Part shown: piece after piece, positions 25,054 to 34,093 of the stretch
How positions within the stretch are numbered: the first letter of the stretch is position 1
Layout: each line of letters begins with the position of its first letter
Origin: Clostridia bacterium
GTDB taxonomy: Bacteria > Bacillota > Clostridia > UBA1381
Reading direction: 5' to 3'
DNA: 64,000 nucleotides
Assembly (NCBI GenBank): GCA_017621875.1
Contig: JAGASE010000003.1
Span: 5,473 to 69,472 of the forward strand
Notes under the pieces: model-generated
The model's database searches: none
Told to the model about the DNA's origin: nothing
Seen by the model: the letters and a program-made list of their open reading frames with translations, nothing else
Program-made: the position numbers and the translations under genes

Positions 25054-25179
25054 ATTACAGCCTCCTTTTTAATATATCTTCATTTTAACACAAATAATAG
25101 CGTATGTCAATAATTTTATACAAGCATTGATATTTTTAATTCGATAATTGTATATTATAGTTAACATAAGGTGATAGTT

Positions 25180-25476
25180 ATGTATAAACTCAGTGAAAGA
25201 TTAAAAGAGCTTAGAAAACGTAATAACATTAGTCAAAATGCACTTGCAAAACAAATGAATTTGACAAGAGCAACCATAAATGCATGGGAAATGGGGATAA
25301 ATTATCCCACCGCTCAATCTCTTATTATGCTTGCAGATTTTTTCAACGTAACTTCTGACTATATTTTGGGCTTGGATTCTGTTGAAACAATAAACATCAG
25401 CAAACTAAATGACGCAGAAAAGAAAATGATTTGTGACATGGTTAAATATTTAGGTGATATAAAATCGGATATGTAA
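25180..25476 (+). CDS. XRE-family HTH transcriptional regulator
   Basis: LKELRKRNNISQNALAKQMNLTRATINAWEMG is a classic HTH_3 motif. The start is placed at ATG 25180, which has AAGGTGA upstream. Confidence 0.8.
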   Translation: MYKLSERLKELRKRNNISQNALAKQMNLTRATINAWEMGINYPTAQSLIMLADFFNVTSDYILGLDSVETINISKLNDAEKKMICDMVKYLGDIKSDM

Positions 25477-25553
25477 AACGTGCGACCAATTTCTGTCGCC
25501 TGCTTGTATTTCCGACTCTTGACAAATCGCCCAATATGCTATATAATAAAAAT

Positions 25554-25638
25554 ACAAAAGGCAAGACCTCAAACGGTTATGCCAAAAGAATGTATTTATA
25601 AAAATAACGCTTCATTTGACCGTGGGCGTTATTTTTTT
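25554..25638 (+). ncRNA. Candidate antisense sRNA (antitoxin-like), copy 1
   Basis: A perfect TTGACA (25519-25524), 17 nt spacer and TATAAT (25542-25547) are present. The hairpin AATAACGC/GCGTTATT (25603-25633) plus U5 follows about 85 nt downstream. It is convergent with, and overlaps the 3' end of, the 22-codon ORF. It is homologous to the minus-strand unit at 33819-33906. Confidence 0.5.
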
Positions 25639-25697
25639 ATGGAAATTACTAAAAGTAACAGAATTATCATAAATGATATTATGTATTCATTATCCAT
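25629..25697 (-). CDS. 22-aa hydrophobic peptide MDNEYIISFMIILLLLVISIKK (type I toxin-like), copy 1
   Basis: Too short for the ORF track. A GGGGGTGA RBS lies 5 nt before the ATG at 25697. It has a single TM-like core and a KK tail. It is a paralogue of the ORF at 33760-33828, with 17 of 22 residues identical by eye. Confidence 0.5.
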   Translation of the reverse strand: MDNEYIISFMIILLLLVISIKK

Positions 25698-25773
25698 AGC
25701 TATCACCCCCTTTGCAAGAGATGATGGCATAACCGCCCAGCTTTTACGCTTGTTTTGGTCTTACCCGATAAAT

Positions 25774-25802
25774 ATTATACCCCAATTCTACAATTTTTGC
25801 AA
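25774..25802 (-). promoter_or_regulatory. Sigma-70 promoter for the small-peptide mRNA, copy 1
   Basis: On the minus strand: TTGCAA (25802-25797), a 17 nt spacer, then TATAAT (25779-25774). This gives a 5' UTR of about 70 nt. Confidence 0.5.
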
Positions 25803-33304: not shown

Positions 33305-33759
33305 TATACTTTATAGCAAAAAGAAACAGGCAAGTCAAGGGTAAATGCACGAGCTTACGCTCGCCTTTGACAAACCTGTTCTTTTTTGCAGTATGCCAAT
33401 TAAGGGGATTTAAGTCAAAAGCGGACTTAAATTTCTTTTTTCAAAAAGTGTTGATTTTTAGGTTTTTGTCCCGCAATAGAACCCCATCTTCGAGATGTTG
33501 AATATAAAACCATTACCTTGTGCGTTTTAACACTTTTAAACCGCTAAAACATGGCATTTTCAACCTCTATTGCGTGACATAAATGCCATATTTGAAAAGT
33601 GTAATAATATAACCCATTTTCTGCTAAAATTCTTGCCTTTTCTTATAAACTATGTTCAAATACCATTGTTGGAGAAATCCAACTTGATGTTGGGCAAGTT
33701 CGAGGGCGGTTAGCCACCTTTTTTATTCTGCTGACTTCAGCAGGGATTGGGGTGGTTTT

Positions 33760-33828
33760 ATGGAAAACGAATACATAATTTATTTTATGATAGTTCTATT
33801 ACTTCTAGTAATAACCATAAAAAAATAA
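33760..33828 (+). CDS. 22-aa hydrophobic peptide MENEYIIYFMIVLLLLVITIKK (type I toxin-like), copy 2
   Basis: A GGGGTGG RBS lies 4 nt before the ATG at 33760. The stop codon is embedded in the hairpin at 33824-33859. It is a paralogue of 25629-25697. Confidence 0.5.
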   Translation: MENEYIIYFMIVLLLLVITIKK

Positions 33829-33906
33829 CTGCGCCTCCCGTCAAGATGAAGCAGTTATTTTAACTAAATCTCTTGGCTAACCGCTTTACGGTCTTGCCCT
33901 TTATCT
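33819..33906 (-). ncRNA. Candidate antisense sRNA (antitoxin-like), copy 2
   Basis: On the minus strand there is a perfect TTGACA (33941-33936), a 17 nt spacer and TATAAT (33918-33913). The hairpin GCAGTTATT/AATAACTGC plus U5 follows about 87 nt downstream. The sequence is conserved with the copy 1 sRNA (GGCAAGACC, CGGTTA.GCCAA.AGA, AAAATAAC.GCTTCAT.TTGAC). Confidence 0.5.
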
Positions 33907-34093
33907 GTTTATATTATAATCCAAATATTTGATTTTGTCAATAAAAATTACGAAAAAAGCTATGCGGACGAAAAATCGTCTGTATAGCTTTTATTCTCTG
34001 CAACCCTTTGAGGCCGTCGATACCTATACTGTTTTATTGAGGCTGTCATATTAGGTGCTTTTTTGATAGTTGTTGGCTATGGTGAATGGTTAA

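Follow-up and report, generated by a model that had tools for sequence, protein, structure and literature searches.

Known systems and the locus under study

In some small toxin-antitoxin (TA) systems, distant parts of the toxin mRNA pair with each other, and in others repeated DNA determines how the toxin mRNA and its antisense RNA meet. In hok, the 5' tac element pairs with the 3' fbi element, producing a closed and stable mRNA to which the antisense RNA has no access (PMC9841398). In AapA1, a 5'-3' helix closes the mRNA and also serves as its terminator, with an internal hairpin that terminates poorly (PMC5416894). In par, direct DNA repeats make the 5' regions of the two RNAs complementary (PMC7472228). 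Here, we analyze an inverted repeat of about 25 nt found in each of two cassettes (copy 1 and copy 2) within a 64,000-nucleotide stretch of the Clostridia bacterium assembly GCA_017621875.1 (contig JAGASE010000003.1, positions 5,473 to 69,472), referred to below as the window. The best explanation of this repeat appears to be a cis-acting RNA element of a type I TA-like cassette. On balance we think it probable that the element is a fold-back element like those of hok and AapA1, with the 3' partner provided by the opposite strand of the antitoxin 5' hairpin.

How do the window cassettes compare with the described systems? As in AapA1/IsoA1, a type I TA system of Helicobacter pylori, the full-length mRNA would be closed by long-distance 5'-3' pairing, and the layout is similar in that a predicted 12-bp helix made by the 5' arm abuts a conserved U-tract downstream of a terminator read in its weaker direction. 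IsoA1, however, is complementary to the 5' untranslated region of the processed mRNA, whereas the antisense RNA here overlaps the mRNA 3' end and shares its DNA with the docking site. In AapA1 the Shine-Dalgarno (SD) sequence is sequestered by the 5'-3' interaction itself, while a separate local hairpin is predicted to play that part here. Pfam and Rfam searches revealed no sequence or peptide homology between AapA1/IsoA1 and the present cassettes, and AapA1 comes from a Gram-negative epsilonproteobacterium, whereas the present family comes from gut Clostridia.

The likeness to hok/Sok of plasmid R1 also lies in a 5' element that pairs with a 3' element and closes the mRNA. Sok, however, targets the mok leader and not the 3' end, which is where the present antisense RNA overlaps its target; moreover, the cassettes have no mok-like overlapping frame and no Hok homology in Pfam. 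In hok, exonucleolytic trimming from the 3' end activates the mRNA, and tac then pairs anew with the anti-SD. Here, no such pairing between the module and the anti-SD was found, and a candidate alternative pairing of this kind was rejected, with only about 4 bp of complementarity by eye.

The par system of the Enterococcus faecalis plasmid pAD1 (Fst RNA I/RNA II, of the Fst/Ldr type) shares with the cassettes its convergent promoters, a shared bidirectional terminator and an SD-sequestering 5' stem-loop. It also has a structure at the extreme 5' end of the toxin mRNA and a second repeat common to the 5' regions of both RNA genes (PMC7472228). The par repeats DRa and DRb are direct and give complementary 5' ends that block the start site, whereas the repeats here are inverted and the 5' ends are alike. 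Nor do the peptides belong to the Fst/Ldr type as judged by database searches, which gave no Pfam Fst match and no Rfam par/Fst match. Two Bacillus subtilis systems, bsrG/SR4 and txpA/RatA, resemble the cassettes in being type I systems of a Firmicute whose antitoxin overlaps the toxin mRNA at its 3' end. In both the antitoxin promotes decay, and the effect of SR4 on structure extends as far as the distant SD region. We know of no description of a 5'-3' fold-back or of a shared 5' module for either one.

The inverted repeat in the window

In each cassette, a hydrophobic open reading frame (ORF) of 22 codons faces a convergent antisense gene whose TTGACA-17-TATAAT promoter is perfect, and the two share a bidirectional terminator, T1. 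As expected of type I TA systems, the ORF of a small hydrophobic peptide has its own SD and promoter in both copies, and sequence prediction places a cis-encoded antisense RNA across part of the toxin mRNA. The predicted antisense RNA is about 85 nt long and consists of two hairpins, the module and then a terminator with 7 U, which extends over the 3' end of the ORF.

In copy 2, on the + strand, the left arm of the repeat is the sense 5' module at 33692-33716, GGGCAAGTTCGAGGGCGGTTAGCCA, and the reverse complement of 33874-33899 is GGGCAAGACCGTAAAGCGGTTAGCCA. The latter segment encodes, on the - strand, the 5' hairpin module of the antisense RNA; the mRNA's proposed 3' docking site is its + strand complement, with CCCTTTATCTGTTT after it. 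A repeat search returned an 11-nt perfect inverted pair at 33706-33716/33874-33884. In copy 1, the toxin gene is on the - strand. There, the reverse complement of 25725-25766 reads GGGTAAGACCAAAACAAGCGTAAAAGCTGGGCGGTTATGCCA and contains the sense 5' module, made up of GGGTAAGACC, an inner hairpin and CGGTTATGCCA. The antisense 5' hairpin module lies on the + strand at 25560-25584 (GGCAAGACCTCAAACGGTTATGCCA), with the proposed docking site as its - strand complement. The corresponding 11-nt perfect pair is at 25574-25584/25725-25735, and the outer arm at 25560-25568, GGCAAGACC, matches GGTAAGACC on the opposite strand. An 11-mer inverted pair is expected by chance about 0.02 times in roughly 360 nt, and one was found at homologous positions of both cassettes. 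A single base separates the loci (TTAGCC versus TTATGCC), and within each locus the two arms agree on it.

The initial annotation, made from the letters of the window, had noted that a leader segment of about 25 nt recurs inverted in each cassette and that the arms match within a locus while differing between loci. Both observations are borne out by the sequence and the repeat search, and the second extends to the genome and metagenome sets described below. Its placement of the second arm beyond the hairpin, within the antisense region, was right in that this arm lies inside the antisense RNA. It was too loose in that the module constitutes the first 25 nt or so of both predicted transcripts. 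The DNA repeat being inverted, both RNAs begin with the same sequence, and their 5' ends are therefore alike and not complementary.

Co-variation of the two arms

The module is the most conserved part of the cassette family, its 24-nt form GGCAAGACCTCAAACGGTTATGCC being identical in most members. Among relatives, the antisense module AGGCAAGACCTCAAACGGTTATGCC and the ATAGAAAA that precedes it are nearly invariant. The variants that do occur were collected from two sets. For the genome set, 40 variant loci were fetched, and 50 cassettes with both modules were tabulated in an anchored-block alignment; the metagenome replicate consists of 49 cassettes selected on the antisense 5' arm and loop only. 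The initial annotation had made any function of the element depend on co-variation of the arms in additional homologues. Such co-variation was found in the genome set and reproduced in the metagenome set, so that the two arms change together across more than 90 cassettes.

The mirrored changes are of many kinds. Deletion of T21 (GGTTAGCC) occurs in copy 2 of the window and, independently, in three loci that encode a different toxin (L175, L176 and L184). The substitution A20G (GGTTGTGCC) is mirrored in L178 and L180, partly in L172, and in 5 metagenome cassettes. One locus (L181) carries GGTCGAGCC/GGTTGAGCC, with GAGCC, and another (L174) carries GGTTATACC/GGTTATACT, with ATAC, while L185 has ATGCT in both arms together with a mirrored loop change. 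The 5' arm has mirrored changes in L201 (A5G and C8T), L049, L192/L197, L033 and L195, and the second L205 cassette has GATCT in both arms. The metagenome set adds the mirrored variants TACGCC and ATGTC. In all, some 12-14 distinct mirrored variant types stand against about 8 that are unmirrored and incompatible with pairing.

Positions 5 and 20, opposite each other and unpaired in the local hairpin, are the sites of several of these changes, and the mirrored GAGCC and ΔT21 changes weaken that hairpin. Three genomes (G103, G043 and G000, the last being the source of the window) each hold both standard and variant cassettes, which argues that the matching is specific to the cassette and is not an adaptation to the host or to a shared trans-acting factor. 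In the metagenome set, G at position 20 co-occurs in the two arms (two-by-two table of 5, 1, 2 and 41; Fisher p = 6e-5). Cognate arms were also separated from shuffled partners in this set with a permutation p = 5e-5, a value that overstates independence because the cassettes are related, as do the other permutation p-values given here. One locus, L201, is a mosaic: its mirrored positions 5 and 8 flank position 7, which is not identical in the two arms but is wobble-compatible. A single conversion tract therefore does not explain this locus.

Long-range and local structure

Two structures were scored on the anchored alignment of 44 distinct cassettes. The long-range structure, in which the sense 5' module pairs with the complement of the antisense module, has 95.7% of its cells paired, as against 31-50% in controls in which the register was slid. 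Two-sided changes occur in 14 of its 25 pairs and in 36 cells, while shuffles gave 5.2 ± 2.1 cells and none of 500 was as high. The mirrored deletion inflates several of these columns, and at least 11 pairs are still two-sided without it. The local hairpins have 89.3% of cells paired, with two-sided changes in only 4 of 16 pairs and 6 cells (shuffles, 3.6). Provided that the 3' element is transcribed in the mRNA, the cassettes share with the hok/AapA class an mRNA 5'/3' complementarity supported by covariation.

Folding of the isolated modules sets copy 2 apart. Its sense module alone gives -5.7 kcal/mol (z = +0.39) and has lost the hairpin, whereas the antisense modules of copy 2 (-10.9 kcal/mol, z = -3.9) and copy 1 (-11.4 kcal/mol, z = -4.5) fold well. 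The same copy 2 sense module pairs almost continuously with its own 3' site, giving a predicted dimer of -40.3 kcal/mol that ranks first among 49 partners. Over the cassettes, cognate dimers of sense module and 3' site average -38.8 kcal/mol versus -35.9 for non-cognate ones (permutation p = 5e-5), and variant cassettes rank their own partner first.

The initial annotation had proposed folding the read-through and terminated forms in silico, and this was done. When the sense RNA is extended just past the module complement, both the minimum free energy (MFE) and centroid structures close 5' to 3' in the two window copies; in copy 2, 33692-33716 is paired to 33874-33899 in each, and in the copy 1 long form the sense module pairs with the complement of 25560-25584. 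The long and short forms have predicted energies of -67.9 and -43.1 kcal/mol for copy 1 and -87.0 and -58.3 kcal/mol for copy 2. Closure of the long form is predicted in 47 of 48 cassettes, with a median probability of 0.99 and a ΔΔG of -13.7 kcal/mol relative to a shuffled 3' site.

Asymmetry between the sense and antisense copies

The two copies of the module are not always identical, and their differences have a direction. Where they differ, the sense copy has U and the antisense copy C, or the sense copy has G and the antisense copy A. Differences of exactly this kind allow the sense leader to form G·U pairs with the complement of the antisense module. In the genome set, 187 cells are G·U-compatible as against 4 with the opposite transitions, along with 32 transversions, mostly at helix ends; the metagenome replicate gave 136 compatible and 4 incompatible cells. 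Two such differences are widespread. Sense GG versus antisense AA immediately ahead of the 3' arm (about 40 of 44 cassettes) would lengthen the 3'-arm helix by two G·U pairs, reaching into the antisense loop, and T versus C at position 3 is found in 30 of 44. On these counts, the asymmetry shows selection on a specific strand at the RNA level and excludes explanations that operate on duplex DNA. Asymmetry alone does not separate a fold-back from an RNA model with local hairpins only.

A fold-back model and its alternatives

The reading that we favor, as indicated above, is a fold-back element whose 3' partner is the complement of the antitoxin 5' hairpin. The model begins at T1 (33822-33861 in copy 2, with 11-nt perfect arms, and 25597-25639 in copy 1), where the U-run is shorter in the sense direction, 4 in copy 2 and 5 in copy 1, than the 7 in the antisense direction of both. 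With this weaker U-run, a fraction of sense transcripts would pass T1, cross the first 25 nt or so of the antisense gene, and probably stop at the conserved U-tract UUUUUCUAU, which would act as a second termination site. A U-tract is conserved after the 3' site in the family (TTTTTCTAT, in which T makes up a mean of 6.8 of 9 bases). The automatic search for T1 and its U-run settled on a wrong hairpin in many cassettes, and its results were used solely for the window copies and this U-tract. In the long transcript, the 5' module (AAAGGUAAGAC ... GGGCGGUUAUGCCA) would pair with the complement of the antisense 5' hairpin, giving a closed form in which an inner hairpin protrudes between two helices, one of about 12 bp and the other of about 13 bp. 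Closure may stabilize the mRNA or protect both of its ends, with the antitoxin docking site shielded, and the antitoxin would open the closed mRNA and lead it to decay.

The fold-back model has a simple consequence for the antitoxin. The same DNA encodes the antitoxin 5' hairpin, so the antitoxin 5' end would be a perfect-match mimic of the mRNA 5' end and would compete for the 3' site. The mRNA's own pairing at that site is rich in G·U pairs and would thus be weaker than the duplex with the antitoxin, and displaceable. Any change in the antitoxin 5' hairpin would have to be matched in the mRNA leader, which would account for both the extreme conservation and the co-variation. A more elaborate version can be stated, although we hold it only tentatively and are inclined to doubt it: the mRNA would use the 3' site both for termination and for a nuclease-resistant, circle-like closure through G·U-rich helices, and the antitoxin, as a mimic of the 5' end, would invade by strand displacement, open the structure and commit the mRNA to decay.

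Several observations weigh against the fold-back model. Perhaps the most basic is that, formally, to say that a sequence pairs with the complement of its inverted copy is to say that the copies are identical, and the two are inseparable by sequence alone; homogenization at the DNA level could be another source of mirrored changes. The largest exception to co-variation is an antisense variant with an extra C in the 3' arm (GGTTCATGCC) alongside a standard sense arm (GGTTATGCC), unmirrored in 10 distinct metagenome cassettes. The 8 or so unmirrored and pairing-incompatible variant types count in the same direction. One-sided changes at position 20 comprise 4 A·C and 3 G·U cases, as conversion intermediates would give. 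Part of the wobble bias, that at locally paired positions, would also result from an invariant antisense hairpin combined with a looser local constraint on the sense hairpin. T1, with its 4-5 U in the sense direction, may terminate most transcripts. Finally, an identical local anti-SD/SD hairpin is predicted for the short and long forms of copy 1, so that closure would not sequester the SD, removal of the 3' end would not free it, and a hok-style translational switch is not evident. The initial annotation had suggested that closure would produce a translationally inert form. The pairing itself is favored by the comparative data (mirrored changes at unpaired positions, the behavior of copy 2, and predicted closure in 47 of 48 cassettes), but translational inertness does not follow from the copy 1 folds.

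The strongest rival supposes that the module is a shared 5' stem-loop with a local function only, protective or in processing (for example, like the 5' upstream helix of par RNA I), and that template switching or micro-conversion keeps the DNA copies alike with no 5'-3' pairing. We consider it unlikely, yet it has real points in its favor: the antisense module folds well (about -11 kcal/mol, z about -4), most sense modules are able to form a hairpin, and two compensatory stem changes are seen, GGT...ACC in L174 and AGC...GCT in L185. The unmirrored insertion variant, the even split of one-sided position-20 changes between G·U and A·C, and a wobble bias that local constraint alone would produce at locally paired positions are all as it would predict. 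It is difficult to see, however, how conversion could act on arms of only 9-13 nt, with the sense copy interrupted by a 16-20 nt insertion; RecA-mediated recombination finds arms of this length too short for homologous conversion. Conversion would also be expected to erase the long-standing differences at position 3 (T/C, 30 of 44) and at GG/AA (about 40 of 44), which persist, and L201 and L181 have unmirrored positions with mirrored ones beside or on both sides of them. Nor does a purely local hairpin fit with the mirrored GAGCC and ΔT21 changes that weaken it, with the copy 2 sense module that has lost the hairpin while keeping complementarity to the 3' site, or with a covariation signal that is weak next to that of the long-range structure.

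Two further explanations seem far less probable. The initial annotation had offered, as its second reading, that both RNAs start with the same hairpin, able to self-pair, and interact through it; as a recognition step, the arms of one would cross-pair with those of the other. Both RNAs do have the module at or near their 5' ends, and the arms could in principle cross-pair. That arrangement predicts co-variation with the stem partner, not mirroring of the same position, and leaves unexplained the mirrored changes at the locally unpaired positions 5 and 20. Cross-pairing would merely repeat the intramolecular pairs and hence bring no net gain in energy; the loops are not complementary (UCAAAC in the antisense RNA, a different and larger loop in the sense RNA), and the copy 2 sense module has no hairpin to offer. 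We regard this reading as very improbable. No more probable is an element that works as DNA, whether as terminal inverted repeats of a mobile mini-cassette or as paired operator half-sites for a DNA-binding protein. The multi-copy, often tandem arrangement at contig ends, the patchy distribution with some viral contigs, and the XRE-family gene next to copy 1 are in keeping with such an element. Both promoters lie outside the repeats, however, which are therefore not terminal, and homology between paralogues outside the modules is limited to the promoter hexamers. The strand-specific G·U asymmetry points instead to selection on RNA, and a trans-acting protein is unable to explain cassette-specific co-variation within one genome.

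Other features of the cassettes

The antisense promoters, both with 12 of 12 consensus matches in the promoter scan, lie 12-13 nt upstream of the module, at 33913-33941 (- strand) in copy 2 and 25519-25547 (+ strand) in copy 1. The copy 1 sense promoter, TTGCAA-17-TATAAT (25774-25802, - strand), was also found by the scan, and the sense module starts 7 nt after it. The sense promoter of copy 2 is weaker: the putative TTGCCT-17-TCAAAT at 33633-33661 (+ strand) falls below the scan threshold and was placed from the sequence and from the TATAAT-N7-hairpin layout of homologous cassettes. In copy 2 and most relatives a small 5'-terminal hairpin (GTCGGAGnAATCCGAC) lies ahead of the sense module. The copy 2 version, GTTGGAGAAATCCAAC (33668-33683, + strand), was detected as a stem and is kept in both folded forms. 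The toxin-like ORFs encode 22 aa each, MENEYIIYFMIVLLLLVITIKK in copy 2 (33760-33828, + strand) and MDNEYIISFMIILLLLVISIKK in copy 1 (25629-25697, - strand).

An anti-SD/SD hairpin predicted to sequester the ribosome-binding site directly follows the module in both window copies (25698-25726, - strand; 33714-33759, + strand) and in homologous cassettes. In copy 1 it is AUCAUCUCUU-GCAA-AGGGGGUGAU, with a tetraloop of the GNRA type. In copy 2 the region, beside the module, contains CCACC ... GGGGTGG; the CCACC pairs with the GGGGTGG of the SD region in the predicted long form, and the short form folds otherwise. The anti-SD/SD hairpin would stack coaxially on the 3'-arm helix in the local and long-range folds alike. 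Between the antisense spacer and the ORF start, AT-rich complementary matches of 7-9 nt were seen by eye.

In the antisense orientation, the loop of T1 carries a recurring motif, YUUUGRC(N)GKGGG, in many cassettes (25611-25625 and 33833-33850 in the window). It persists despite differing stems and recalls the par loop-loop initiation site. A tRNA-like or CCA-ending minihelix reading of GGTTATGCCA was rejected: its CC is paired, and signals of the ARAGORN/Rfam type are absent.

The gene adjoining copy 1 encodes an XRE-family regulator (25171-25476), and the region flanked by the two cassettes (27.2-29.7 kb) contains an integrase remnant and a tRNA cluster. The window cassettes may lie in or beside an island or prophage remnant.

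Distribution and relatives

At a tolerance of 3 mismatches, a search for the 24-mer gave about 170 occurrences, spread over 80 of the 164 genomes of the bacterial family, while the reversed pattern was absent from every genome. In an order-level genome search the module was rare in sister families (6 of 55 genomes in f4 and 1 of 19 in f3). In IMG/VR the module is present on 6 contigs; cultured phage and plasmid collections gave no match, and no annotated or cultivable carrier was found. Neither 22-aa peptide belongs to a Pfam family or has an Fst-type match at E up to 10, and neither cassette has an Rfam match above noise. The one candidate, a BsrG match at 25623-25739 (- strand), was dismissed as noise (15.4 bits and E = 0.14; the gathering score is 55). 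Taken together, the cassettes are a putative and undescribed family of the small toxin/antisense-RNA type from gut Clostridia.

The module is nearly invariant across unrelated peptides, which begin MDNEYII, MEYVHIM, MKKHILRV or MKKVISKV or belong to a longer class. Terminators and promoter spacers differ among cassettes that have the same module at both RNA starts, and between paralogues the homology outside the modules is confined to the promoter hexamers.

The source genome has at least six cassettes, several of them in tandem at contig ends. A scan of genome contigs with a 14-mer gave 120 matches, mostly due to chance, of which only L052, L072, L080 and L160 are real cassettes. Contig C21 (200-1170) of this genome carries two copies about 730 bp apart, and on C18 (329-705) one complete copy is accompanied by another antisense gene, which has no more than the truncated 3' end of a toxin gene (these contigs are covered by loci L003 and L004). 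One metagenome contig has four modules within 1.2 kb (L249, 1144-2366).

In seven loci (L171, L177, L179, L182, L186, L188 and L189) the antisense promoter, module and terminator are intact and no sense 5' module is recognizable; L171 retains only a remnant of the inner hairpin, CAGTGTAAAAGCTG. Of the six GGTCATGCC variants, whose local G6-C19 pair is stronger, four are among these orphan antisense genes. In another locus (L209; genome G167, contig C21, 10020-10570) the sense 3' arm is apparently split, as GGGCGGTT, an insert of about 95 nt and ATGCCATCC, with the outer arms kept. The insert may represent either a further structured domain or an element that has been inserted.

Implications

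The near-invariance of the 24-nt module, set against toxins, terminators and promoter spacers that diverge, makes it usable as a sequence tag, and a sharp one, for finding cassettes in metagenomes that could not otherwise be annotated. The fold-back reading would account for this near-invariance by several constraints acting at once. If the more tentative proposal of a 5'-end mimic were also true, a single stretch of DNA would serve as terminator arm, fold-back partner and antitoxin recognition hairpin, which would explain why it is the most strongly conserved part of the family.

To our knowledge, control of toxin mRNAs by 5'-3' fold-back has been worked out only for hok, on enterobacterial plasmids, and for AapA, in Helicobacter. 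If the fold-back reading is true, the cassettes would be a covariation-supported example from abundant, uncultured Clostridia of the gut and rumen, and the same logic would have evolved independently in Firmicutes. The arrangement itself would be new, in that the fold-back partner and the antitoxin 5' hairpin would be the two strands of one DNA segment.

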